64,000 nt of DNA from an uncultured Bacteroidota bacterium (GCA_963851385.1 CAWKPE010000010.1:199269-263268), one strand, 5' to 3'; numbered from the stretch's first letter, positions 14,412 to 55,089 are shown. The notes: a model not told the origin generated them from the letters alone. Made by a program: numbers and translations.

Positions 14412-16521
14412 TTAGATTACTGTTGATTTTCCTTTTACTTTATCAAGAATATCTTTTGCCAAATTTGGTGATACCTGCTGGAAATGTGAAAACTCCATAC
14501 TTGATGTAGCACGTCCTGAAGTAAGAGTACGCAATACTGTAACATAACCAAACTGTTCAGCAAGTGGTACTTTTGCTTTAACCACTCTACCGCCAGCTTT
14601 CATTTCCATACCTTCAATATTACCACGCCGTTTGTTCAAGTCACCTATAACATCGCCAACATATTCTTCAGGAGTAACTACTTCAAGTTTCATTATAGGT
14701 TCCAGGAATACTGGATTTGCCTTATTGCATGCTTTTTTAAATGCCATCTTAGCACAAATCTCAAATGATAAAGAATCTGAATCTACAGCATGATATGAAC
14801 CATCAAGTAATGTAACTTTCAAACTGTCCATTTTATAACCTGCCAATACACCATTTCGCATTGCTTCCTTAAAACCTTTTTCAACAGAAGGGATATATTC
14901 TTTAGGCACATTACCACCTTTTACCTTATTTTCAAATTGAAGACCTGTTATATTAGCATCAGCAGGCTCAACACGAACTTCAATGTCAGCAAACTTGCCA
15001 CGGCCACCACTTTGTTTTTTAAATGTTTCACGAATTTCAACTGCAGAAGTAATAGCTTCCTTATAAGCTACCTGAGGAGCTCCTTGGTTACATTCAACTT
15101 TAAATTCGCGTTTCAACCTGTCCACAATAATTTCTAAGTGAAGTTCTCCCATACCGCTAATAATAGTCTGGCCGGAATCTTCATCCGTGTGAACACGAAA
15201 TGTTGGATCTTCTTCGGAAAGCTTACCAAGTGCAATTCCTAATTTATCAAAATCTCCCTGGGTTTTAGGTTCAATTGCGATACCAATAACCGGTTCCGGG
15301 AATTTCATTGATTCAAGTGTAATAGGATGTTTTTCATCACAAAGTGTATCACCGGTACGAATATCTTTAAAACCAACGGCTGCACAAATATCACCAGCTT
15401 CTATAATATCACGGGGATTTTGCTTGTTGGCATGCATCTGGAAAAGACGGGCAATACGTTCTTTCTTACGAGTACGGCTATTTAAAACATAAGAACCGGA
15501 TTTTATAGTACCTGAGTAAACTCTCATATAACACAAGCGACCTACAAAAGGATCAGTTGCAATTTTAAATGCCAATGCTGTAAGAGGTTGTTTTTCATCA
15601 GGTTTTCTGGTAACAGGTTTATGAATTACCGGATTTATACCTTCGATATCAGGAACATCTAATGGACTGGGAAGGAAATCTGCTACTGCATCTAAAAGCT
15701 GCTGAACTCCTTTATTTTTAAATGCTGCACCACAAAGAATAGGCGTAATTTTCATGCTGATGGTTGCTTTGCGACATGCGTCTCCTAAGCTCATCCGCAT
15801 TTAAAGAATTTTTATCATTAAAGAATTTTTCCAATAGAACATCGTCTTGTTCACAAATTACTTCCAATAATTTATCTCGCCATTCTTCAACAGTTTCTTT
15901 TAAATCATCAGGAACATCAACAATATTGAATTTTTCACCCTTTGGATCATCTGTGTCATAAATATGTGCCTTTCTTTCAAAAAGGTCAACCACACCCATG
16001 AATTTTTCTTCAGCACCAATGGGAACCTGAATAGGAACTGCATTTGCTCCTAACTTATCTTTGATTTGTTGAATCAACTCAAAAAAATCGGCACCTGTAC
16101 GATCCATTTTATTGACGAAGCCTATCCGGGGAACATTATATTTGTTGGCCTGACGCCACACAGTTTCCGACTGAGGTTCAACTCCGGCAACTGCGCAGAA
16201 AAGAGCGACAGCACCGTCAAGGACACGCAAAGAACGCTCAACTTCAACAGTAAAGTCAACATGACCTGGAGTATCAATAATATTTATTTTGTATTCCTGA
16301 TTTTTATATTTCCAGAAACAGGTTGTAGCTGCAGAAGTAATAGTAATTCCTCTCTCCTGCTCTTGAACCATCCAATCCATTGTAGCTGCACCATCATGAA
16401 CCTCACCAATCTTATAATTCACACCAGTATAATATAGGATGCGCTCGGTAGTAGTAGTTTTACCGGCATCTATGTGGGCCATAATTCCTATATTCCTGGT
16501 ATATCTTAAATCCCTGCTCAT
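14412..16521 (-). pseudogene. fusA: elongation factor G, reading frame broken once as sequenced
   Basis: An N-terminal 267-aa piece ([19 protein letters not shown]...) and a C-terminal 462-aa piece (…[26 protein letters not shown]...) overlap at 15718-15800. The junction is ...ELRR/ACRKATI near 15775-15787. One extra base separates the frames. Confidence 0.92.
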
Positions 16522-17174: not shown

Positions 17175-17580
17175 TTAAACTTTTTTAGCTGCTGCAGCTA
17201 TTGCACTTACTTTTGGACGTTTAGCACCGTAAAGTGACCGACTCTGTTTTCTGCCTTCAACACCAGCTGCATCGAGGGTTCCCCTTATTAAATGATAACG
17301 TACACCTGGAAGATCTTTAACACGTCCACCACGAACTAAGAACAATTGAGTGCTCCTGTAAGTTATGTCCTTCACCTGGAATATAAGCCGTTACTTCTAT
17401 ACCGTTTGTAAGCCTTACACGTGCAACCTTGCGCATTGCTGAATTTGGTTTTTTTGGAGTTGTCGTGTAAACTCTTGTACAAACACCACGCCTCTGCGGA
17501 CAACTTATCAATGCCGGAGCTTTACTTTTAAATTCAAGTTTCTTTCTTCCTTTTCTTACTAATTGCTGTATTGTTGGCAT
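17175..17580 (-). pseudogene. rpsL: 30S ribosomal protein S12, reading frame broken once as sequenced
   Basis: True start is [14 protein letters not shown] (ATG at 17580). ...[12 protein letters not shown] then slips, and [19 protein letters not shown]... continues in another frame. The junction is at plus 17331-17343. One extra A separates the frames. Confidence 0.9.
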
Positions 17581-17621
17581 ACAATCTATGTATTTACTGT
17601 ATTTATTAATAAAATGGGTTG

Positions 17622-17651
17622 CAAAGGTAGATTTTTTTTTGAAAAAACAAA
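17622..17651 (-). promoter_or_regulatory. candidate Bacteroidota-type promoter of the str operon
   Basis: Minus strand reads TTTG, then 18 nt, then TACCTTTG. This fits the TTTG (-33) / TAnnTTTG (-7) consensus. It lies about 40 nt upstream of the rpsL ATG. Confidence 0.5.
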
Positions 17652-17752
17652 CATGACCTTTTAAAATATTTTCTACAAACTCTGACAATGAATTTAAATG
17701 AATAGAATTTCAACTTTAATTCGTTAAAAATTGTGAAGTATTAAAAAAATAT

Positions 17753-17852: not shown

Positions 17853-20009
17853 ATGAAAAATTATGTAACAAACCAGGTAAAAAATATTACCCTGCTTGGC
17901 AATTCGGGCTCGGGTAAAACCACTCTTGCCGAAGCAATGCTTTTCGAGGGTGGCGTTATAGAAAGACGTGGTACAGTAGAACAAAAAAATACAGTGTCTG
18001 ACTATAATGATATAGAACATGAAAATAAAAATTCAATTTTTTCATCTGTACTGTACACTGAATATCTTGATAAAAAAATAAATATCATAGACAACCCGGG
18101 ATTAGACGATTTTGTTGGTGGTGCTATTGCATCTATTATGGTTGCTGATTCCGCCGTACTTTTAATTAATGCCCAGAATGGTATTGAGGTTGGAACTGAA
18201 ATACATGCCCGTCATCTGGAAAACCATAAAAAACCAATGATTATATTGGTTAACCATTTGGACCATGACAAAGCAAATTTTGAAAAGGCCATTGAAATGG
18301 CCAAAGAACGTATAGGAAATAATATTACAATTTTACAATATCCAATAAATGAAGGTTCAAGCTTTAACAGTGTTATTGATGTAATGCTGATGAAGATGTT
18401 AAAATATCCCGCAGATGGAGGCAAAGCAGAAGTTGCCGACATTCCTGCAAATGAATCAGAAAAGGCTACTGCGTTGCACAATCAATTAATTGAAAAAGCA
18501 GCTGAAAGTGATGAAAAATTAATGGAAGTATTTTTTGACAAAGGCACATTGACGAGTGATGAATTACAAAAAGGAATTATGGCAGGTATAATTTCAAGAG
18601 GATTATTTCCTGTTTTATGTGCATCGGCTAAAAAGAATATGGGTGTTGGTAATTTACTTGAATTCATTTGTAATGTTGCACCAGGTCCACAGGATGTGCC
18701 CGGTTTAAAATCAACTGATGGCAAAGAAATTAAAGTCAACCCATCTTTACCGGCAGCGCTCTTTGTTTTTAAAACAAACATCGAACAGCACATTGGTGAA
18801 ATAAATTATTTTAAAGTAATAGGCGGTGAAATAGTTGAAAGTATCGACCTGGTTAATAATAATAACCAGACAAAAGAAAGATTGAGCCAATTATTTGTAT
18901 CGGCCGGTAAAAACCGCACCAAAGTTCCTAAACTTGCAGCCGGTGATATTGGCGCGACAGTAAAGCTTAAGAATACCAAGACACAACATACGCTTACTTT
19001 ATCTAATCAATCAACTATTTTCGAAAAAATAGCATTTCCAAATCCAAAATTTCGCACTGCAATTAAGGCAAAAAGCGAAGGAGATGAAGAAAAACTTGGC
19101 GAAGCACTTAACCGGATGCAACAGGAAGATCCTACTATAATAGTTGAATATTCTAAAGAACTTAAACAAACTATTCTGCATGGACAGGGAGAATACCATC
19201 TTAATATATTAAAATGGCATCTTGACAATATTTTTAAAATTCAAACTGAATTCCTTGCTCCAAAAATTCCTTATCGCGAAACAATAACTAAAATAGCTGC
19301 TGCCGACTATCGTCATAAAAAGCAATCAGGAGGAGCCGGACAGTTTGGTGAAGTTTACCTGGTAATAGAACCATATATAGAAGGAGCTCCAGACCCAACA
19401 ATGTATAAAGTTGGAAGTAAGGAAATAAAAATAAATGTTCGTCATAAAGATGAGGTTGACATGCCCTGGGGAGGTAAACTTGTTTACTATAATTGTATTG
19501 TAGGCGGTTCTATTGATGCACGTTTCATGCCTTCAATACTTAAAGGAATTATGGAAAAAATGGAAGAAGGACCACTTACGGGTTCTTACGCCCGCGATAT
19601 ACGAGTAGCAGTTTATGACGGTAAAATGCACCCTGTCGATTCTAATGATATTTCATTCAGATTAGCCGGAAGAAATGCATTTAAAGAAGCTTTCAAAAAT
19701 GCCGGTCCAAAAATTATGGAACCCATATATGACGTTGAAGTTTTTGTACCTTCCGACCGCATGGGAGATGTGATGAGCGATTTACAGGGACGCCGTGCAA
19801 TTGTTCAGGGAATGAGCAGTGAGAAAGGCTTTGAAAAAATAATTGCCAGGGTACCTCTGGCTGAAATGAATAAGTACTCAACTGCCTTGAGTTCGCTGAC
19901 TGCAGGCCGTGCAATTTATACTATGAAATTTGCCGAATATGCACAGGTTCCGGGTGAAATCCAGACTGAACTTCTGAAAGCTTATGAAGCTGAAGAAAAA
20001 GAAGAATAA
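17853..20009 (+). CDS. EF-G-like translational GTPase (paralogue, not the canonical fusA)
   Basis: 718 aa. It has P-loop GNSGSGKTT, DNPG and NHLD G-motifs, then EF-G-like domains (…YRHKKQSGGAGQFGEV…). It is divergent from the str operon. Confidence 0.85.
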   Translation: MKNYVTNQVKNITLLGNSGSGKTTLAEAMLFEGGVIERRGTVEQKNTVSDYNDIEHENKNSIFSSVLYTEYLDKKINIIDNPGLDDFVGGAIASIMVADSAVLLINAQNGIEVGTEIHARHLENHKKPMIILVNHLDHDKANFEKAIEMAKERIGNNITILQYPINEGSSFNSVIDVMLMKMLKYPADGGKAEVADIPANESEKATALHNQLIEKAAESDEKLMEVFFDKGTLTSDELQKGIMAGIISRGLFPVLCASAKKNMGVGNLLEFICNVAPGPQDVPGLKSTDGKEIKVNPSLPAALFVFKTNIEQHIGEINYFKVIGGEIVESIDLVNNNNQTKERLSQLFVSAGKNRTKVPKLAAGDIGATVKLKNTKTQHTLTLSNQSTIFEKIAFPNPKFRTAIKAKSEGDEEKLGEALNRMQQEDPTIIVEYSKELKQTILHGQGEYHLNILKWHLDNIFKIQTEFLAPKIPYRETITKIAAADYRHKKQSGGAGQFGEVYLVIEPYIEGAPDPTMYKVGSKEIKINVRHKDEVDMPWGGKLVYYNCIVGGSIDARFMPSILKGIMEKMEEGPLTGSYARDIRVAVYDGKMHPVDSNDISFRLAGRNAFKEAFKNAGPKIMEPIYDVEVFVPSDRMGDVMSDLQGRRAIVQGMSSEKGFEKIIARVPLAEMNKYSTALSSLTAGRAIYTMKFAEYAQVPGEIQTELLKAYEAEEKEE

Positions 20010-20225
20010 TTTAATGACTAATTACCAATCAATATCGTTTAGTTAAGGAACGAAACACCCTTCGACAAGCTCAGGGTGACAATAAGATGAGGTCATACTG
20101 AGCTTGTCGAAGTATGACCAATGATATAAAACTGCTTAACTAAACGACATTGAATTACCAATGACTAATTACTGATTATAATAAGTCAAATAAAAATTGA
20201 GCCCTGCAAAAGTGGAGCTTTTTGA
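19853..20225 (+). repeat. direct repeat copy 1 (3' end of EF-G-like gene + MITE + terminator start)
   Basis: Aligns by hand with 21013-21388 at a constant offset of 1160 bp. I counted 9 substitutions before the terminator region, where small indels begin. Confidence 0.9.
20030..20152 (+). mobile_element. 123-bp MITE-like nested-hairpin element, copy 1
   Basis: Terminal inverted repeats caatatcgtttagttaag / cttaactaaacgacattg. Two internal hairpins are built on cttcgacaagctcag. Flanked by a perfect 10-bp direct duplication AATTACCAAT (20020-20029 and 20153-20162). Confidence 0.8.
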
Positions 20226-20341
20226 TTACATTAAATGCAAAAAGATCAAAGTCAACTGCGATAGAATCACTAAATTTTCCATAGCGTTGTGTCCCATTTA
20301 AAAAATAAATTTCATCGAAACTTCTTAAGATTTTTTTATCT

Positions 20342-20584
20342 TTGAAAAAAAGAAAAATGCAAGCATATAGATTTGAAACACGGATATCCAAAAAAGGAGT
20401 AATACAATTACCTTTTAATCAGCAATTAGTTGATAGAGAGGTTGAAATTATTATATTGCCCAAACAGGATTTAAAAGCAAATAAAAATGCTTCTGTTGAT
20501 TTTGTAAATAAATGGGCCGGATTTCTTTCAAATGTAAATATAGAGGATTCAAAGTTTCAATATTTGAAAGAAAAATACAAATAA
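20342..20584 (+). CDS. putative antitoxin of a type II TA pair (family not recognised)
   Basis: 80-aa ORF whose stop overlaps the PIN gene start (TAATG). It is small, charged, and immediately upstream of a PIN toxin. An alternative start is M6 (20357). Confidence 0.6.
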   Translation: MKKRKMQAYRFETRISKKGVIQLPFNQQLVDREVEIIILPKQDLKANKNASVDFVNKWAGFLSNVNIEDSKFQYLKEKYK

Positions 20585-21003
20585 TGAGAGTTCTATTTGA
20601 TACAAATATAATTCTTGATATTGCTCTTGGTCGGGAACCGTATTTTACTGATTCTGCCAATGCTTTTAAGAAAATTGACAATAAATCAATATTTGGGTTC
20701 ATCACTGCAACTACAATTACAGACATCTATTATATTGCTAAAAGAGAAAAAGGCCATCAAGTTATAATTGATTTTATTGGTAACTTGATTGAAATAATTG
20801 ATGTAATAGGGATTGATAGGCAAGTAATAATTGAATCACTATTTTCTCAGCTTTTTGATTTTGAAGATGCTATACAATCGGTTTCATCTCGTTTAAATGG
20901 TATTGATTATATCATAACGCGAAACCAAAAGGATTTTGCTAAATCTGAAGTAAAAGCTTTAACTCCAAAAGAATTCTTGAACTTATTAAAGAAAATAAAA
21001 TAA
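20584..21003 (+). CDS. PIN-domain (VapC-like) toxin
   Basis: 139 aa from MRVLFDTNIILDIALG..., with acidic PIN positions (FDTN, DFEDA, ITRNQKDF). The ORF-track start at 20512 is an upstream extension. Confidence 0.8.
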   Translation: MRVLFDTNIILDIALGREPYFTDSANAFKKIDNKSIFGFITATTITDIYYIAKREKGHQVIIDFIGNLIEIIDVIGIDRQVIIESLFSQLFDFEDAIQSVSSRLNGIDYIITRNQKDFAKSEVKALTPKEFLNLLKKIK

Positions 21004-21012
21004 TAAAAACAG

Positions 21013-21169
21013 ACCTCTGGCAGAAATGAATAAGTGCTCAACTGCCTTGAGTTCGCTGACTGCAGGACGTGCAATTTATACTATGAAATTTGCTGAATAC
21101 GCTCAGGTTCCCGGTGAAATCCAGACTGAACTTCTGAAAGCTTATGAAGCAGAAGAAAAAGAAGAATAA
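21013..21169 (+). pseudogene. orphan 3' fragment (last ~52 codons) of an EF-G-like gene
   Basis: Reads PLAEMNKCSTALSSLTAGRAIYTMKFAEYAQVPGEIQTELLKAYEAEEKEE*. An in-frame TAA lies a few codons upstream and there is no N-terminal part. Confidence 0.85.
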
Positions 21170-21189
21170 TTTAATGACTAATTACCAAT

Positions 21190-21312
21190 CAATATCGTTT
21201 AGTTAAGGAACGAAACACCCTTCGACAAGCTCAGGGTGACAATAAGATGAGGTCATACTGAGCTTGTCGAAGTATGACCAATGATATAAAACTGCTTAAC
21301 TAAACGACATTG
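21190..21312 (+). mobile_element. 123-bp MITE-like element, copy 2 (inside repeat copy 2)
   Basis: Identical by eye to copy 1, including the same 10-bp flanks. It was therefore duplicated with the repeat and not inserted independently. Confidence 0.8.
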
Positions 21313-21358
21313 AATTACCAATGACTGATTACTGATTATAATAAGTCAAATAAAAATT

Positions 21359-21388
21359 GAGCCCTGCAAAATGAAGTGGGGCTTTTTT
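21359..21388 (+). terminator. weak rho-independent terminator
   Basis: agccc ... gggct stem (5 bp) followed by TTTTTT. Confidence 0.4.
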
Positions 21389-21637
21389 ATTTTAATCACA
21401 TACAAACGTAGTGTTCATTTCTACAACATAGCATTTGTTATGTAATAAATATTTAGAATATAAACAGAAATATTAGTTATTTATTTACAAAAATTTTGTT
21501 TTGACATAATTATTTATATTTTTGATTGTCAATTACTTTTAACGCTCATGTACAAAGTATTTTATATATCACGAATAGATAGAATAAGTCAAAGCCGAAA
21601 AGCTAAATAAATGTAAGAAAATTTAAAACTTAATATT

Positions 21638-22825
21638 ATGAAAACTTCAAAATTATTTTTACTTTTTAATTGTATTGCTGTGTTTTTATAACTAATGTAC
21701 AAGCGCAAACGAATGTTGCTGCTGCTCCTACCAAGCCGGTATTTTTAATAAATGGTACATGTTCCACTACACTTTCCTATATGAATGATGGTAATACATC
21801 TACATTAGCCAGTCTGTATTATCCTGGCGCTATTTCCTTTTATATTGATTTGGGGAATGGAGCTGCGAATTATTTTGATCTTACCTCTACAACAATTTAT
21901 TGGGCAAGTGGAAATTATTTAACAAGTTATACTATATACACATCACCTGATAATACCAACTGGACAGTTGCATTATCAGTTACTGGTAATTCAAGTCTTA
22001 CAGATTCACACAGTCTTACTACAGGCAAAACATACGTGAGGTATGTGAAATTTGTGGCAGGTAATTATGCGAATCTCTATAATCTTGGAATTTATGATTT
22101 CCAGGTATTTGGTTCTCCCAGTATTGCATTACCGGCTTCGTTCAGTACAATAAATGTTTCTAGTACTGCCACTTTTGGCGCTACTGCCTCATTTACCGGG
22201 GGAATTACAGCAGGTGCTTTAAACACGCCAACTATAAATAATTCGGGTAACTTGAATCTGCAAACTGGCGGAACAAATAGAATCACTATTCTCAACCCAA
22301 GTGGTCAGGTAGATATTTTAAATGATTCTTTTAGTTTCTGGAGCAACAACTACCGGAAGTTTAACAACTACAGGTGCAATTTCTGCAGGAAGCTTAACAG
22401 CAACAGGTACAATTTCGGCAGCAAATTTAACAGTTTCCGGTAGTACATCTTTAAATAATTTATCAATTGCCGGATGTTTTTCTATTCCAGGTACTGTTAG
22501 TATTGGCTGTAATAGAATTGAGCCAGGTTATTCTCTTGCAGTAAATGGTGGAATTATTACTACTGGATTAGTAGTACAATATTATAATAATTGGCCTGAT
22601 TTCATATTTTCAAAGACTTATAAACTAAAATCCCTTGCTGAAACGGAAGAATACATAAAAGCCAATAAACATCTGGAAGGTGTGCCAACTGAAACCGAAG
22701 TTAAAGAAAAAGGTATTGATGTTGCTGAAATGAATACCATTTTATTAAAGAAAATTGAGGAAATGACCCTGCTGATGATTGAGCAGAATAAACGCATTGA
22801 AGCTTTGGAAAAAAAAGGAAAATGA
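21638..22825 (+). pseudogene. secreted tail-fibre-like protein with F5/8 type C (discoidin)-like N-domain, two frame breaks as sequenced
   Basis: The ATG at 21638 gives signal-peptide-like MKTSKLFLLF... and stops after 17 codons. ORF 21670-22443 continues with a discoidin-like domain. ORF 22322-22825 carries 11-aa GSLTTTGAISA-type repeats and a coiled C-terminus WPDFIFSKTYKLKSLAETEEYIKANKHLEG... Confidence 0.6.
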
Positions 22826-22854
22826 TTATTATTTAAGCATTTATACTATTTAAT

Positions 22855-23757
22855 ATGAAAACATATTTTTGCTTTATTTCTTTGATTTTTATGATTGCGA
22901 TAAAAGCAACTTCACAAGACATGGATATAAATGCCAAAGGGGGAGATTATGCACCAGATACAGCCGGATTTTGCCATGATCAATATAATTATCCTGATTA
23001 TGGTGGCTTGGATTTTAAAATTCAACCCTGTAGGAGAGAAATCATTGGTACCTTAAAACAGAATAGTAGCAAAAAACATAAACTGGATATTACTAAATTC
23101 ACTGATCCTACATTAATTCCTTATCATAATCTTACCCTTGAAAACAAATGGCAATTAAAGCAATTGGTATCTATAACAAAAGATCAAAAATACTTTAATT
23201 TGCTAACAAAATTAGCTCTTGATTCTGCAGAACGACTTCCTGATCGTTTAGAATATATTAAACTCTTAGAAATATATTCACCAAGATGTATAGAAGTATT
23301 GAATCAACTACTAAATGATAGTATAGAAGAATTGGCTGCCAATGCTGCATGTGCGTTAGTTGAATTGGGAAAATATGATAAAGCATTCCTCTTCTTTAAG
23401 GTTTATCATAGCGCTGAACCTGCTTTTGAGGTATACTTGTCACTTGCAAAAATGAATACGCCCGAAGCTACTAAAGAATTAATCAGGCTGGCAAAAGAAG
23501 ACAGGCAGCCAGGCCTCGTGCTCTCTGCCGTATCATCTTTGTCATTACATAATGGACTTTGCAATGTAGCATTTGAAGTTTTTTCTGAATTTGCCAAAAG
23601 CAAATTTGAGCATATAAGGGAAAAGACAGTTTCTTGCCTGGCTTATTATACTGGAACGCCCGAAGCCTTCAATATTATCAGACAAATGAAAAATGACCCA
23701 AGCGAAGTGGTAAGAAACGAAGTTAACCATGTTTTAAGTATTTACAATAAAAACTAA
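22855..23757 (+). CDS. exported HEAT-repeat protein
   Basis: 300 aa. It has a signal peptide MKTYFCFISLIFMIAIKATSQ and HEAT/PBS-lyase-like helical repeats (…EELAANAACALVELGKYD…, …NDPSEVVRNEVNHVL…). It ends 6 nt before the next gene. Confidence 0.55.
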   Translation: MKTYFCFISLIFMIAIKATSQDMDINAKGGDYAPDTAGFCHDQYNYPDYGGLDFKIQPCRREIIGTLKQNSSKKHKLDITKFTDPTLIPYHNLTLENKWQLKQLVSITKDQKYFNLLTKLALDSAERLPDRLEYIKLLEIYSPRCIEVLNQLLNDSIEELAANAACALVELGKYDKAFLFFKVYHSAEPAFEVYLSLAKMNTPEATKELIRLAKEDRQPGLVLSAVSSLSLHNGLCNVAFEVFSEFAKSKFEHIREKTVSCLAYYTGTPEAFNIIRQMKNDPSEVVRNEVNHVLSIYNKN

Positions 23758-23762
23758 AATTT

Positions 23763-26276
23763 ATGAAAATAAAATCAATATTGCTCTATTTATATTTTTT
23801 TTCCTGCGCTATAAATATACATGCCCAGGACCCGACTGATCAATCTGGGGATACAGATCCTGATATGATTATAGGCAGTTCAGTGGTTGATTTAAACGAT
23901 CCAATTTATAACAACTTATATTCGACCTCTTGCAGTTCAAAAAAGAAAGCTGCGAAAGATGCATCCAGGACCTTTTCTATTGAATATAATCAAGGTAGCA
24001 ATGCGTGTAACATACCTGTCGCATGTGATTGGGGACTACAAAGCGATAATACTTGGACTACAATTTGTAATACTTCAAGTATATTTAGAGATGAAGGTTG
24101 TTTGATTACTTGCCAGGCGATGATTCTTGCTAATTCTGGTTTCACAGACGTAACTCCCTTAACTTGGGCTAATACATTATGTTCATATAATCCTTCAGGA
24201 ATTAGTGAGAGCGGAGCTATGACTATATGTGGTAATTGTACAGATTATTTAGATGTATATTCTGGAAGTAAAGTTTTTCAAAGTTATGTTTTCACATGGA
24301 ATAGTTCAAGCGATAATAATCATTTGGTAGGCCTTATGAAAAATCAGATTGATAATGGGGGTTGGGTAATTGCAAGAATTAATGATATTCTTAATGCTAA
24401 GACTGGAGGAGGATGTAATATAATATCTGCTTCACATCATTTTGTTTTAATTTATGGGTATAATGGTGACAATCCTGACTGGAGCGATTTTTTAGTATCG
24501 GACCCATCGTCCCATTGCGAAGATGTTTGTCACGATAATGATACTTGGACATTAGGAGATTATAGCGATGACATTCCGCTAAATAGTGGCACTTACGTTG
24601 TTTTTTATAATGTTCAGCAACAAGGAACCGCTACACATTTAAAAATAAATACACCAAAAACAAGTACCGTCGGAAATATATTAAAATTAATGTTTGCATT
24701 ATTATCTACAACTGAAAAAAGTGCAACTGCAACTAATGACAGTTATTGCAATGTAATTTGGAAAATTACAAATTCTGCTGGGTTTACATACAGTATAAAT
24801 TCTGATGTTCCTTCATTTACGTTTGACCAACCAGGAATATATACTATTTCGGCAGTAGCCGAAAATGCAGATGGCATTTATACAGATGTGGAAGAAATTG
24901 ATGTACAAGGAGATCCCACGTCAACTTCGAATAGCTCTGCAAATACAGACTGGACAGCTAATGGTAACGATACGTATTTTTGTGCAACATGTCAGCCGGC
25001 TCCATGTCCTTCCGCTGCACCTGGTATACCTAACGGCCTTACCAGTTCAAAAGTTTCAACTTCCGGGTTCACGGTATCATGGGGAACTGTTGCTTGTACA
25101 ACAAATTATTTGGTTTATATTGATGTTAATGGCACTCAAATTTCAGGCAGTCCATTTACAGTTACAACAAATAGCTTAACCGAAAGTAAATTAACTGAAG
25201 GTGTTTATTATAATGTGAAGGTAAGTGCACAGAACAGTTATGGAGTATCCGCAACAAGTCAAGTATTACAAATTCAAACTGTAAATCCTCCTCCGCCTTC
25301 ACAATCTTGCTACCAATTTAATGACTTTAGTTACGTTGGTAATAACTGGTATGCAACTGCCATGAATACTACTTTCGAAATTCAGGACAATACTGTTGCC
25401 TCAGGCTGGAATCCGCATGTTTGGATATGTTGGGATGTAAAACGTGGTTGTGGAACACTAGACTATGATGTTGGTGATTATTGGGCTTGGACCGAAGAAA
25501 AGGTTCAATATATGGGGGGGGACGGGCCCGTTATGATAGATTTTAAACCAATGTATCCTGGGCATTTAATAGATCACGTTTACTATACAGAAGGGCAATA
25601 TATAATCAAGTATTATGAAAGAGAAGCTCATTGTGATGAGGATGTCAGCGACGAATTAGCAAATGATAATATTGCATGGGGCGGTGCCAACATTGTTGAT
25701 TGCAGCAAAACAAAGTATCCTGCTGACCTCCTCGCTAAAGTTAATAATTACGATTGGGGCTGGGGTCATGGATATTTTGGGGGTTCGTTCATATTGAATG
25801 ACCTTTCTCCAATTAAAGATAAAAATGGAAGTTCCTGTAGCAACAACATGAAGCTTATTTTATCGGCATGCAATTCAATTGAGTTGGATCCGGGGATTTC
25901 TCTTGCACCTACGGTTGCTGGTAATTATATTCAACTGGAAGTAGGTGTAATAGAAGGTTCGCAAGGCAGTACCAAAAAATCGGCAGAAATTGAGGATATT
26001 GCTACCAATATTACTCCTGTTGAAACAGATAATAAAGAAGCAAACATTAGCATTTTCCCTAACCCCAATAAAGGTTCATTTACTGTGTCGTTAACGAACG
26101 AGGAGGTTAGTGAAATATCCATAGTAAACATTTTTGGCCAGGTGGTACAATTTAAAACCAATAATAATGTAGGCAGTTCGTTTACTATTTCCCTGCCAGG
26201 CGGGTGCAAAGGAATGTACCTTGTAAGGTTAAGAGGCAGTCAAAAAACTTATTTGCAAAAAATAGTAGTTGAATAA
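23763..26276 (+). CDS. secreted papain-fold (C39-like) cysteine peptidase with PKD-like and FN3-like domains and T9SS type A sorting domain
   Basis: 837 aa with a signal peptide. Cys/His/Asp contexts are DEGCLITCQAM, SHHFVLIYGY and VSDPS. An FN3-like segment reads GFTVSWGTV..YLVYIDVNG. The C-terminus ISIFPNPNKGSFTV...GMYLVRLRG..TYLQKIVVE is a Por secretion tail. Confidence 0.65.
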   Translation: MKIKSILLYLYFFSCAINIHAQDPTDQSGDTDPDMIIGSSVVDLNDPIYNNLYSTSCSSKKKAAKDASRTFSIEYNQGSNACNIPVACDWGLQSDNTWTTICNTSSIFRDEGCLITCQAMILANSGFTDVTPLTWANTLCSYNPSGISESGAMTICGNCTDYLDVYSGSKVFQSYVFTWNSSSDNNHLVGLMKNQIDNGGWVIARINDILNAKTGGGCNIISASHHFVLIYGYNGDNPDWSDFLVSDPSSHCEDVCHDNDTWTLGDYSDDIPLNSGTYVVFYNVQQQGTATHLKINTPKTSTVGNILKLMFALLSTTEKSATATNDSYCNVIWKITNSAGFTYSINSDVPSFTFDQPGIYTISAVAENADGIYTDVEEIDVQGDPTSTSNSSANTDWTANGNDTYFCATCQPAPCPSAAPGIPNGLTSSKVSTSGFTVSWGTVACTTNYLVYIDVNGTQISGSPFTVTTNSLTESKLTEGVYYNVKVSAQNSYGVSATSQVLQIQTVNPPPPSQSCYQFNDFSYVGNNWYATAMNTTFEIQDNTVASGWNPHVWICWDVKRGCGTLDYDVGDYWAWTEEKVQYMGGDGPVMIDFKPMYPGHLIDHVYYTEGQYIIKYYEREAHCDEDVSDELANDNIAWGGANIVDCSKTKYPADLLAKVNNYDWGWGHGYFGGSFILNDLSPIKDKNGSSCSNNMKLILSACNSIELDPGISLAPTVAGNYIQLEVGVIEGSQGSTKKSAEIEDIATNITPVETDNKEANISIFPNPNKGSFTVSLTNEEVSEISIVNIFGQVVQFKTNNNVGSSFTISLPGGCKGMYLVRLRGSQKTYLQKIVVE

Positions 26277-26315
26277 ACTATATTTATTTAAATTCTAATT
26301 TGTTTTTGCACATTA

Positions 26316-28370: not shown

Positions 28371-28904
28371 CCCCATACCTCTTAAAAAAGGTAATTTCCT
28401 AGATTATGGTACATTCTAAATCCCTTCCAAATTTAAATGTCACATATTCAATTATTTTTTCTCTACCTTTTTCTTAAAAAAAAGTAGCCAAAATTCAAGA
28501 AAATCTGAAGCTTCAACCCACAAGGCTCCCGCACCCTCGCCAGATTTTCAGGCCCACGCACACCGGCCTTTGTCCGGTTTTGGGGAAGTGCTCAAAATAA
28601 ACATTAGTCGCCATTGAATATGAACTAAAATAAATTAATAGCTAGCCAATGTGTAATGGCTTTTTCACGGATGGTGCGGAAAGCAGGTTTTGATGCATAA
28701 GTTCTAATCATTAAAAAAACAATGAATTTATTTATGTGCCACTTCTCTCAATTTACATGCAAAACCGAAACCTGATTTCTTCATTCGTGGTGACTTTTTT
28801 TGTTACTTTTTTTTATGGCAGAAAAAAAAGTAAATTCCAGTATGATAAGAACGTCATTATTTTGTGCCAATATCTAGGAAATTATTCTTAAAAAGGGTCT
28901 GGGG
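28371..28904 (-). mobile_element. structured intergenic repeat, copy A (shares ~85-nt core with 35069-35457 and 54684-55089)
   Basis: Imperfect terminal inverted repeats (…aggtaatttcctagat / atctaggaaatta…, ends cccca / tgggg). The core gtagccaaaattcaagaaaatctgaagcttcaaccc...ccctcgccagattttcaggcc aligns with the reverse complement of copy B. Confidence 0.6.
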
Positions 28905-35068: not shown

Positions 35069-35457
35069 AATTAATGTGAGTTCGACGAAATAAAAAATGT
35101 ACTTATCAAGTAATCAGAATTATGTTCATTTCTTTTTTCGCCAAAAAAGAAACGAACCAAAGAACTTAGCGGAGCGATCTCACGAACGAAGTGAGTAAAA
35201 AGGCTTGGTTGCAAAAACTCGCTCCTTCGCCATTTGGCGTATTCGCTCAAACAGCTTGCAACCGAAAAGGAATTTATTTTTAATCCCGCCGAAGGCGGGA
35301 AAGAGCGTTGGCCAGAAAATCAGGCGAGGGTGTGTGCGCATTGCGGGTTGAAGCTTCTGATTTTCTTGACTTTTTGGTTACTTTTGTGTCAAGACAAAAG
35401 TAACATATTGATAACAATATATTTATATTCATTTCTTATGTCGAACTTACGTTAATT
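35069..35457 (+). mobile_element. structured intergenic repeat, copy B (MITE-like, ~389 bp)
   Basis: Terminal inverted repeats aattaatgtgagttcgac / gtcgaacttacgttaatt. It holds several internal hairpins. A 46-nt block (ccaaagaacttagcggagcgatctcacgaacgaagtgagtaaaaag) is identical to copy C in reverse orientation. ORF 35234-35455 inside it is judged spurious. Confidence 0.7.
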
Positions 35458-35486
35458 AAGTCCAGAAGTCTAAAAAATATTTTAAT

Positions 35487-36611: not shown

Positions 36612-36734
36612 CAATGTCGTTTAGTTAAGCAATTTTATATCATTGGTCATACTTCGACAAGCTCAGTATGACCTCATTTTATTGTCACCCTGAGCTTGTC
36701 GAAGGGTGTTTCGTTCCTTAACTAAACGACATTG
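36612..36734 (-). mobile_element. 123-bp MITE-like element, copy 3 (opposite orientation, independent insertion)
   Basis: Same termini and internal hairpins as copies 1 and 2. Flanked by a different perfect 10-bp duplication AATCATAATT (36602-36611 and 36735-36744). Confidence 0.8.
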
Positions 36735-54683: not shown

Positions 54684-55089
54684 ATAATTAACTTCAGTTC
54701 GATATAAGAAAATGTTTAAATATTTTGTTTTAAACACTTTACCTTTTGTCTTGACACAAAAGGTAACCAAAAAGTCAATCCCGCCTTAGGCGTGATGAAG
54801 CTTCCACCCACGAGCTTTCGCACACTCGCCAGATTTTCTGGCCAACGCACTTTCCCGTTTCACGGAAATTAGAAGAGAATTCCTTTTCTGCTGCGTGCTT
54901 CCCGAAATTTCGTGATGAGCAAAGGCGGCAGCCGGAGTTCACGCAGCCAAGTCTTTTTACTCACTTCGTTCGTGAGATCGCTCCGCTAAGTTCTTTGGTT
55001 CATTTCTTTTTTGACGAAAAAAAGAAATGAATAATATTCTGATTATCTGTAATAAGTATGTTATCTTAGGTCGAACTCACGTTAATTAT
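54684..55089 (-). mobile_element. structured intergenic repeat, copy C (inverted relative to copy B)
   Basis: Terminal inverted repeats ataattaacttcagttcgat / gtcgaactcacgttaattat. It shares the 46-nt identical block and the GAAGCTTC...CTCGCCAGATTTTCTGGCC core with copies B and A. Confidence 0.7.

Follow-up and report, generated by a model that had tools for sequence, protein, structure and literature searches.

The movement of chromosomal toxin-antitoxin (TA) modules carrying no mobility gene is poorly understood, and the locus analyzed here raises the question in a concrete form. In a 64,000-nucleotide stretch of DNA (the window) from an uncultured Bacteroidales bacterium, a two-gene cassette is located directly downstream of the gene encoding the translation GTPase EF-G2, between two direct repeats that both contain the 3' end of this gene. 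How did the cassette come to be inserted there, and what keeps the repeats in place?

The EF-G2 gene (17853–20009, + strand; ORF scan) encodes a protein of 718 aa, which matches the NCBIfam profile NF058620 (EFG2_Bacteroid) with 1218 bits versus a cut-off of 1000 and contains the EF-G domains described in Pfam. The gene is intact: as stated in the initial annotation, its reading frame terminates within the first repeat, which supplies the last 52 codons and the stop. Copy 1 of the repeat (19853–20225, + strand, 373 bp) and copy 2 (21013–21388, + strand, 376 bp) were delimited by constant-offset comparison and BLAST, the latter giving a pair at 19853–20227 and 21013–21391 with 96% identity, gaps included. 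The copies had been described as aligning base for base at an offset of 1160 bp. The pairwise alignment recommended on that occasion confirmed the pair and the constancy of the offset, but the identity amounts to 350 of 359 bases (19853–20211 versus 21013–21371; nine mismatches, 97.5%), and the offset is lost at 20212/21372 because of a 4-nt indel in the loop of the terminator hairpin. The coding 140 nt of the repeat carry eight of these nine mismatches; all the differences between the copies are located at or before 19991 or from 20167 onward, i.e., outside the miniature element (MITE) and its target site duplication (TSD), and the middle of the repeat, about 175–220 bp including the MITE, is virtually identical in both copies. 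Each copy contains the last 52 EF-G2 codons, a 123-bp MITE with its 10-bp TSD, and a terminator; the first three of these components had already been recognized, along with what was taken to be only the start of the hairpin, whereas the whole hairpin is present in both copies. Apart from a third MITE, no other repeat comparable to this ~370-bp pair was detected in the window. The 1160-bp unit is the exact product that recombination between the repeats would release.

The EF-G2 3' fragment in copy 2 (21013–21169, + strand, 52 codons plus stop), detected by a Pfam EFG_C match on a 47-aa ORF, is an orphan, closed upstream, as previously noted, by an in-frame TAA at 20996–20998, and it carries a Y to C substitution that is absent from all functional EF-G2 sequences. 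Copy 2 ends in the native intrinsic terminator (21359–21394, + strand; 9-bp stem, 8-nt loop, T run; −13.2 kcal/mol), which is orthologous to the terminator 3' of EF-G2 in L162, a relative lacking the cassette. The corresponding hairpin in copy 1 (20199–20220, + strand) is degenerate, with one C-A mismatch, a 4-nt loop and a short T run (−6.2 kcal/mol), and was not called by the terminator scan. The two MITE copies (20030–20152 and 21190–21312, both + strand, 123 bp) are identical, have a fold energy of −48.1 kcal/mol and 18-nt terminal inverted repeats (CAATRTCGTTTAGTTAAG), and are flanked by the same TSD, AATTACCAAT (20020–20029 and 20153–20162 in copy 1; 21180–21189 and 21313–21322 in copy 2), in agreement with the earlier description. 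The third copy, identified by sequence comparison on the − strand (36612–36734), shows three differences and has its own 10-bp TSD, AATTATGATT. As expected of a MITE, the sequence is short and non-coding, ends in inverted repeats and is present three times, with two different 10-bp TSDs; the third copy with its different TSD shows that the element is mobile and defines its ends.

The insert between the repeats consists of 787 bp of unique DNA (20226–21012, + strand; repeat comparison) with a G+C content of 27%, versus 37% in EF-G2. It had been described as the only unique DNA between the copies, a two-gene operon with a TAATG overlap devoid of any integrase, transposase or att-like repeat, and this description holds: it contains only the antitoxin and PIN_3 toxin genes, the antitoxin stop and the toxin start overlap by 1 nt (TAATG at 20582–20586), and no recombinase, transposase or defined termini were found in the cassette, nor any recombinase nearby. 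The core conserved in the TA family extends from about 20326 to 21005 (the BLASTN matches with L231, L170, L001, L330, and L331 cover 20326–21008 only). The toxin (20584–21003, + strand, 139 aa) is VapC-like: it matches Pfam PF13470 (PIN_3) with 61.9 bits (cut-off 27; E = 1.3e-16), shows a weak match with VapC 7by2, and possesses D6, E94, D95, and D117, which are kept in 142–154 of 154 homologues. The putative antitoxin (20357–20584, + strand) is a conserved partner upstream of the PIN gene at no fewer than 33 of 80 loci. It was initially given as an 80-aa protein starting at TTG 20342, but is most likely 75 aa long from ATG 20357, the equivalent position being the start of all 18 homologues in alignment A1. 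The profile searches suggested for both proteins identified the toxin as a PIN_3 protein, whereas the antitoxin gave no match in Pfam, NCBIfam or PDB profiles, none of the DNA-binding folds of antitoxins (AbrB, RHH, Phd or HTH) being recognized; its single-sequence AlphaFold model has a pLDDT of 46.7, which is too low for use. Judging from its sequence, the operon is a predicted VapBC-like type II TA module comprising a promoter stub, the 75-aa antitoxin and a predicted PIN_3 RNase toxin. It resembles VapBC-type modules in its PIN_3 toxin with the conserved acidic residues of the active site, its small upstream gene, the 1-nt overlap, its patchy distribution and its low G+C content, and differs from them in that its antitoxin, the activity of which is putative, matches no described antitoxin family.

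This layout might be an assembly artefact, a single path having been built from two strain haplotypes or from an empty-site chromosome plus a small circle. The window assembly is error-prone, since 1-nt errors shift the reading frames of rpsL and fusA, and the central 175–220 bp of the repeats are identical, so that short k-mers cannot phase the copies. However, both novel junctions are present in L081, an independent k = 31 contig from another assembly (run ERR10755942), which is 100% identical to window positions 20182–21142 and ends exactly where the k-mers become common to both repeat copies. The toxin|orphan junction is also found in L176, a ~10% diverged contig from a different JGI metagenome, which matches 20264–21189 at 89.5% and shows the same PIN stop|ACCT(T)TGGC junction without the MITE. 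Both contigs cover the left part of copy 2 (at 100% identity in the case of L081); the left junction (20225|20226) is backed by L081 only, a contig possibly derived from the sample that also yielded the window, and the linkage of the two copies is based on the assembly plus these two short contigs, each of which covers only a part. In addition, a joint between the toxin and the middle of a gene cannot be created by a simple insertion polymorphism, and the same layout occurs in the isolate genomes of Moheibacter lacus (L020) and Rhodohalobacter (L025). All in all, we regard an artefact as very improbable. Most of the close homologues of the TA genes were found on contigs shorter than 3 kb. Repeats of this kind disrupt short-read assemblies in the vicinity of TA genes.

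The empty site, which the initial annotation had proposed looking for in related genomes, was found in three related species (EF-G2 84–91% identical at the amino acid level), where the EF-G2 stop leads directly into an orthologue of the copy 2 terminator, with a convergent CHU_C gene next to it. These sequences (L162–L169), which are ~15% diverged at the DNA level, have one EF-G2 3' end and the orthologous terminator, without any TA genes or MITE. They show what the ancestral site would have been, namely the EF-G2 stop followed by the terminator and the next gene. At the filled site, the 3' ~240 bp of the EF-G2 stop/terminator region are present on both flanks of the cassette and EF-G2 is kept intact. 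No empty-site or MITE-only allele was found in the same species, the empty sites occurring only in the ~15% diverged species. Since L176 has the same toxin|orphan junction at ~10% divergence, the insertion event appears to be neither recent nor unique to the window genome; and since L176 has this junction without the MITE, the latter did not belong to the original duplicated target.

The coding differences between copies 1 and 2 include seven synonymous and one non-synonymous changes (probability under neutrality, 2e-4), and those specific to the L176 orphan eight synonymous and two non-synonymous changes, both amino acid variants being also encountered in functional EF-G2 proteins. There are eight differences between copies 1 and 2, and 20 between either copy and the L176 orphan. 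The fact that these changes are almost exclusively synonymous points to an exchange of sequence between the repeats and functional alleles via homologous recombination or gene conversion, which probably also carried the MITE from one repeat to the other. By such concerted evolution, the orphan gene fragment would be changing in the way a live gene does. Since the copies differ from each other in the same way as alleles under purifying selection, homologous exchange is favored over site-specific integration; the synonymous bias can nevertheless also result from gene conversion or allelic replacement at a later stage, irrespective of how the duplication was first made, and a homology-driven origin is not proven thereby.

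The same TA family was found on other arms, as had been suggested to be worth checking, at L022, L038, L052, L331, and other loci. Tight flanking direct repeats of 30–440 bp are present at 17 of the 125 loci of the family (~14%; 9 of the 70 genome loci and 8 of the 55 metagenome loci carrying the PIN gene). The control values were 0 of 6883 for positions in EF-G2 loci and 25 of 4163 (0.6%) for positions elsewhere in the same TA loci, which amounts to a ~20-fold enrichment over these controls, consisting of positions rather than matched accessory cassettes. At L022, the repeat (82 bp) consists of the upstream gene's 3' end, its six differences are all synonymous, and the empty site was verified in four relatives; in L262 and L264, the left junction of the TA is the one seen in L022, but the right flanks differ. 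The 126-bp repeat at L038 extends across a gene-gene junction, and L331 has an exact 30-bp repeat around a cassette showing 80% identity. From one locus to another, the repeats have no sequence or length in common, each of them being made of local sequence. The insert in the window has EF-G2 and surface-protein genes as its neighbours; since other family members adjoin unrelated genes, the proximity to a translation GTPase gene, to which attention had been drawn, looks incidental. The PIN homologues on known plasmids are distant only (≤37% identity). Some family members are located in repeat-rich arrays, possibly cassette arrays (L024, L032, L033, L174, and L187).

Members in such arrays, together with the fact that att sites typically involve a duplicated gene 3' end, might suggest a site-specific element moved in trans, either an integron cassette or an integrase-mobilized island for which the 3' end of EF-G2 served as att site. 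This origin is hardly credible, however: neither the insert nor its surroundings contain a recombinase, the repeats are local and wholly different in sequence and length between loci, and the 373-bp repeat, composed of coding sequence, MITE and terminator, is not an attC-like palindrome.

The explanation we favor, and which we take to be the probable one, is that a VapBC-like cassette without any mobility gene or defined ends was inserted directly 3' of EF-G2 with a long target duplication, via one homologous exchange and one illegitimate joint, that the repeats later exchanged sequence, and that addiction keeps them in place. The incoming DNA would already have consisted of an arm plus the TA genes; a single homologous exchange would have occurred in the EF-G2 3' region, and a single illegitimate joint (toxin stop|ACCTCTGGC) would have been formed. 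The product would be the same with a linear fragment, via homology-facilitated illegitimate recombination, and with a circle, via Campbell integration. Both repeats would afterwards have continued to exchange sequence, mutually and with functional alleles, and the MITE would have landed in one repeat and been copied into the other by gene conversion. Loss of the cassette via repeat recombination would be counter-selected, the segregants losing an antitoxin presumed to be labile, and this putative addiction would explain the persistence of an otherwise unstable 370-bp repeat and the enrichment of repeats around the TA family. What counts against this explanation is that RecA-dependent integration works poorly with exact repeats as short as those found elsewhere in the family (30–50 bp).

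The earlier proposal that the TA module spread by homologous rather than site-specific integration is supported by the local single-copy repeats, the allele-like 7:1 differences and the lack of a recombinase; the circular molecule with its Campbell-type crossover is not. In that scheme, a circle carrying the TA genes and an arm running from the EF-G2 3' end to the terminator would integrate by a single RecA-dependent crossover, and cycles of excision and re-integration would spread the TA between related genomes. The repeat-cassette-repeat topology and the homology of the arms with the target fit this idea, as does the same closure joint (toxin stop|ACCTYTGGC) in two lineages ~10% apart; the orphan arms resemble functional alleles, as expected if the crossover in each cycle reshuffles the arm, and the 1160-bp unit is exactly equal to the product of inter-repeat recombination. 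Nothing indicates a circular form, however, the L081 and L176 junctions fitting a chromosome or a circle alike, and a 1.2-kb circle would have no replication or transfer function. The plasmid-borne PIN homologues do not exceed 37% identity, the 30–50-bp repeats at other loci are short for RecA crossovers, and the first illegitimate joint would still be unexplained. The conserved left junction and variable right flank of the L022 group (L022, L262, and L264) correspond to a one-sided anchor rather than two fixed joints, which favors the linear route. We therefore consider the circle unlikely.

Alternatively, the duplication may have been made in place, by filled-in, widely staggered breaks or by a replication template switch into foreign DNA and back, in which case the repeats would have been identical at birth; the differences now seen would go back to flanks replaced later on, through recombination, by those of MITE-less, TA-less relatives. 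The variable repeat lengths (30–440 bp) without defined ends are reminiscent of restriction-modification (R-M) systems, for which the same proposal exists; the exact 30-bp repeat in L331 is in line with it, and none of the differences in the window reaches the MITE from either side, a pattern expected if this heterology obliged imported MITE-less tracts to end. However, the L176 junction without the MITE means that the MITE was absent from the original target and had to be transferred from one repeat to the other in any case, and the PIN toxin, being an RNase (Pfam), cannot supply the DNA breaks invoked in the case of R-M systems. Moreover, we know of no enzyme that nicks DNA at sites 30–440 bp apart. 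In-place duplication seems to us to be an improbable origin.

Insertion via one homologous exchange and one illegitimate joint can be compared with several known systems. R-M gene complexes inserted with long target duplication were reportedly described by Nobusato et al. in 2000 (Gene 259:99). R-M insertions with 46–423-bp target duplications are documented, with DNA breakage by the restriction enzyme offered as their cause (Furuta, Abe and Kobayashi, 2010, PMC2853133), and long target duplication is listed in reviews for R-M systems only (PMC3874152). The present locus, with an insert of less than 20 kb, no mobile element, repeats longer than 30 bp and a single copy at the empty site, would belong to this class as a variant, its cargo being an RNase-type TA pair (antitoxin and PIN toxin) and not an R-M system. 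The two have in common a small addiction-type unit without mobility genes, repeats of variable length (46–423 bp there, 30–440 bp here) that occur only once in genomes with the empty site and in many cases include the 3' end of the adjacent gene, and a significant enrichment of flanking repeats in comparison with average genes. They differ in that the cargo is here a type II TA with a PIN RNase toxin, to which the DNA-breakage cause is inapplicable, the repeats have diverged in an allele-like, synonymous-only manner, the structure is common to lineages ~10% apart, and the MITE was probably copied between the repeats.

In homology-facilitated illegitimate recombination and C-terminal displacement at Rhs/CDI/T6SS effector loci (de Vries and Wackernagel, 2002; Prudhomme et al., 2002; Kirchberger et al., 2017, PMC5361080), a conserved gene likewise provides the one homologous anchor and the other joint is illegitimate, the original 3' end of the anchor gene comes to lie downstream as an orphan fragment, and a conserved left junction is combined with a variable right flank, as at L022, L262, and L264. 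In those systems, the incoming 3' end encodes a new toxin domain that lacks homology to the old one and is accompanied by an immunity gene, whereas here it is homologous to the resident one, the cargo being a separate TA operon. Campbell integration of suicide plasmids (insertion-duplication mutagenesis) gives the same arm-insert-arm layout, with the target gene intact thanks to the duplicated arm, but here the structure is natural and old, with no vector backbone, origin, marker or observed circle. In Microcystis aeruginosa PCC 7806, a ParDE-like TA with identical 152-bp direct repeats adjoins an orthocaspase gene (Klemencic et al., 2021, PMC7935541); this TA pair is also located just 3' of a host gene between long direct repeats, but belongs to another TA family, its repeats are intergenic and include an inverted repeat, and PMC7935541 contains no empty-site or mechanism analysis.

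The locus provides a concrete case of a selfish cassette entering at the 3' end of a gene and leaving this gene unharmed. More generally, and quite tentatively, small type II TA cassettes might constitute a class of recombinase-free mobile DNA, carried between related genomes along with a piece of a neighbouring gene and inserted via one homologous and one illegitimate joint; RecA would normally eliminate such long target duplications, but deletants would die by post-segregational killing, so that the repeats would persist, evolve with the live gene and be able to release the cassette again. The fact that the layout known from R-M systems surrounds an RNase-type TA and is enriched ~20-fold at its loci points to a cause common to addiction modules, namely flanking-homology recombination combined with the killing of deletants. 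If this is true, addiction rather than DNA cleavage would underlie long target duplication in R-M and TA systems alike.

The two direct repeats enclosing the toxin-antitoxin (TA) cassette, copy 1 (19853-20225) and copy 2 (21013-21388), can be superimposed by a shift of 1160 bp, which leaves 9 mismatches over 359 nt between 19853-20211 and 21013-21371; past 20211/21371 there is a 4-nt indel, after which similarity continues through a hairpin up to ~20225 and ~21388, and beyond 20225/21388 no similarity exceeds that of shuffled controls. The BLAST alignment of the pair covers 19853-20227 and 21013-21391 at 96% identity. Eight mismatches lie within the first 140 nt, which are coding, and one lies at 20167, the remaining differences being inside the hairpin, of which copy 1 carries a weakened variant (-6.2 vs -13.2 kcal/mol in copy 2). 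The final 52 codons and the stop of a 718-aa ORF (17853-20009, ending inside copy 1) are present in both copies. This ORF scores 1218 bits against NCBIfam NF058620 and encodes the EF-G2 paralogue of Bacteroidota; exact-protein look-ups with it and with P0001 returned no record. In copy 2, the EF-G2 3' end is an orphan fragment, closed on its upstream side by an in-frame TAA at 20996-20998. The initial annotation had described the repeats in much this way, and its description is right apart from small corrections. Further diverged repeats with 75-86% identity, mostly inverted, were observed elsewhere in the window (35069-35458 vs 55087-54685; 28464-28559 vs 35402-35305 and 54796-54850).

Both repeat copies also hold an element of 123 bp that ends in 18-nt inverted repeats and has AATTACCAAT on either side, followed by the hairpin; the two elements are identical to each other. 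Since a third copy on the minus strand (36612-36734) has 3 substitutions and a 10-bp duplication of its own, AATTATGATT, the element is a genuine MITE. It appears to be lineage-specific, as a 39-nt arm taken from it had no exact match in 185,579 GTDB representative genomes, a collection from which the window species and the lineage of L176 (a JGI metagenome contig about 10% diverged) are absent. The Rfam scan of the whole window gave no family at the gathering score, so that the MITE and the hairpins match no known RNA family.

The 787 bp separating the repeats (20226-21012) contain two ORFs joined via TAATG. The second encodes a 139-aa PIN_3 protein (Pfam, 61.9 bits) in which D6, E94, D95, and D117, invariant or nearly so across 154 homologues, are kept. 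The first encodes the 75-aa putative antitoxin, which among 80 related loci lies ahead of the toxin gene in at least 33; it matched no described family by Pfam, NCBIfam or PDB profile, and the quality of its single-sequence AlphaFold model was too low for use. The ends of the cassette are not fixed: only ~20326-21005 of the window's insert is common to other family members. When plasmids were searched with the PIN protein, only distant homologues were found (at most 37% identity, on cyanobacterial and Ligilactobacillus plasmids), so that no vehicle was identified.

The window consensus is error-prone, since rpsL and fusA carry 1-nt frameshifts with respect to a relative, and is most likely the product of a long-read assembly. 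These single-base frameshifts, which split the essential genes fusA (14412-16521, at ~15789) and rpsL (17175-17688, at ~17340), together with one at ~21690 in the signal peptide of a surface-protein gene (21639-22825), look like consensus errors rather than pseudogenes on comparison with L162, an empty-site relative. The repeats are not an assembly chimera, a possibility ruled out by the junctions present in two other contigs. The 961-bp Logan contig L081 (run ERR10755942) is identical to window 20182-21142, and its two ends coincide exactly with the outermost 31-mers that distinguish one repeat copy from the other, so that both new junctions are supported; both sequence variants occur in the sample of that run. 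L176, 1131 bp in length, aligns to 20264-21189 with 89.5% identity and has the same junction as the window, namely the toxin stop, a few bases, and then ACCTTTGGCTGAAATG..., which means that the toxin-to-mid-gene junction occurs in two lineages ~10% apart. A scan of the GTDB representatives, which include neither the window species nor the L176 lineage, gave no match to this junction. That both copies lie on one molecule, rather than on a chromosome plus a 1160-bp circle, is probable on the strength of the assembly and the short contigs. In L176 (1-1131), the PIN gene appears to be frameshifted, and the orphan EF-G2 fragment is followed by a possible orphan fragment coding for a T9SS C-terminal sorting domain, which may be a second displaced 3' end. 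Most of the contigs carrying close PIN homologues (P0121-P0240) are shorter than 3 kb, which suggests that short-read assemblies often break at the repeats or strain variation around the cassette.

The empty site that the initial annotation had proposed to look for exists in the lineages of the nearest public EF-G2 proteins (91%, 85%, and 84% identity). In all three, a short spacer, the convergent CHU_C gene, and UvrD come in that order after the EF-G2 stop, and there is no TA pair, duplicate, or MITE at the EF-G2 3' site; the ancestral state is therefore an empty site. The terminator in the 125-bp spacer of L162 is an orthologue of the copy 2 terminator, which is therefore the native one. The interval between EF-G2 and CHU_C in the window also carries ~5 kb of surface-protein genes (21400-26300, encoding an F5/8-type-C protein, a HEAT-repeat protein, and an 837-aa protein with fn3 and a T9SS tail). 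Because this stretch is missing from the three relatives, the region after EF-G2 is a variable spot.

The differences between the copies do not correspond to the neutral decay of a freshly made duplicate, which is ruled out by their synonymous bias. Seven of the eight coding differences are synonymous third-position changes, where random mutation of the repeat coding sequence would give 22% synonymous changes (P = 2e-4 for at least 7/8); the only non-synonymous one, Y to C, is in the orphan and was seen in no functional EF-G2. The L176 orphan differs from either window copy at 20 positions, with 17 synonymous codon differences and two (copy 1) or three (copy 2) non-synonymous ones. Its own derived changes consist of eight synonymous and two non-synonymous substitutions, and its two amino-acid variants both occur in functional EF-G2 proteins such as P0009. 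The window copies, with 8 differences between them, are more alike than either is like the L176 orphan (20 differences). The orphan fragment changes as if under purifying selection and groups with its genome's own live copy, from which it follows that the repeats exchange sequence with each other or with functional alleles, whether by homologous recombination or by gene conversion. In the central 220 bp (19992-20211), which contain the MITE, the copies show a single difference, all the differences lying outside the MITE and its target duplication, and the MITE is missing from L176; the simplest history has the MITE entering one repeat once the duplication existed and then being copied to the other through conversion. 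Polarisation of the 8 SNPs with L162 did not tell which copy is donor-derived.

The same layout was searched for by self-comparison of 80 genome and 80 metagenome loci encoding PIN homologues, counting those with enough flank and taking direct repeats that tightly flank the TA pair with a length of 45 bp or more and an identity of 80% or more. Such repeats were found in 9/70 genome and 8/55 metagenome loci (17/125), as against 0/6883 pseudo-cassette positions in 80 EF-G2 loci and, within these TA loci themselves, 25/4163 other positions (0.6%); with a more sensitive alignment, ~20 of 141 loci have flanking repeats. Some of the positives are repeat-rich arrays (L024, L032, L033, L174, and L187) and may be something else; in L024 (3600-8800, a Sunxiuqinia MAG), five or more TA pairs form an island, with non-coding repeats of ~440 bp between one pair and the next. 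In many others, a stretch of local sequence is simply present twice. The repeat is 82 bp long in L022, where it corresponds to the final 80 nt of the 507-aa gene lying upstream and all six differences are synonymous, 126 bp in L038 (running from the end of a gene into the start of its neighbour), 100 bp in L052 (the end of the convergent downstream gene), 185 bp in L010, 226 bp in L078, 200 bp in L179, and 50 bp in the isolate L020. In the Rhodohalobacter isolate L025 (3613-6814), a 305-bp repeat starting from the metH stop brackets an IS110-family transposase together with the TA pair. Exact 30-bp direct repeats enclose a cassette 80% identical in DNA to that of the window in L331 (2096-2929) and L332; in L330 (827-1282), a cassette with 80% DNA identity lies upstream of sucD, its PIN frame being 12 aa longer and extending into the flanking DNA. 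The TA family is thus attached to other arms, as in L022, L038, L052, and L331, a point that the initial annotation had suggested checking; as other members adjoin unrelated genes, a functional link to EF-G2 is rejected. The L022 site is empty in four related genomes, in which the upstream stop is followed by usp after 57-84 nt. In two other genera (L262 and L264), a TA pair of the family occupies the left junction of L022, with different right flanks and no orphan.

What the data show is the absence of a recombinase and of defined termini, repeats of variable length made of local sequence, empty sites, intact neighbour genes, and allele-like repeat divergence. An integron with attC or an integrase att site is rejected on account of the repeats and the absence of a recombinase. 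The initial proposal, a Campbell-type insertion of a circle, is partly supported: the evidence favours a homology-based rather than a site-specific insertion, and it does not support a circular intermediate, nor a recent event or any link to the function of EF-G2. Two events would be needed for the structure, an illegitimate joint between the toxin end and mid-EF-G2 and an exchange inside homologous sequence. The observed product would arise from a linear fragment (EF-G2, arm, TA) whose left side is anchored by homology and whose right side is joined illegitimately within the arm of the recipient, and equally from a single crossover with a circle carrying the arm and the TA pair; in-place duplication followed by allelic replacement would be an alternative origin. 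The fixed left and variable right flanks of L022, L262, and L264 favour a one-sided anchor, and the junction shared with L176 is compatible with either route. The persistence of direct repeats of 30-440 bp would be explained most simply by addiction, since recombinants deleting the cassette would lose the putative antitoxin gene.

The architecture in the window is that of the "insertion with long target duplication" of restriction-modification (R-M) systems, in which 46-423-bp repeats, sometimes overlapping the 3' end of a neighbouring gene, are enriched at the flanks and DNA breakage has been proposed as the mechanism (PMC2853133). A review covering both R-M and TA systems gives long target duplication only for R-M (PMC3874152), and one repeat-flanked TA pair has been reported anecdotally, in Microcystis (PMC7935541). 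The orphan EF-G2 3' end also resembles what is seen at Rhs and T6SS loci, where C-terminal displacement has been put down to homology-facilitated illegitimate recombination (PMC5361080). One such locus would not surprise specialists in mobile DNA; the points meriting systematic follow-up are the enrichment of the repeats across the family, the way in which the orphan evolves as if under selection, and the implication that addiction, and not DNA cleavage, may lie behind long target duplications.
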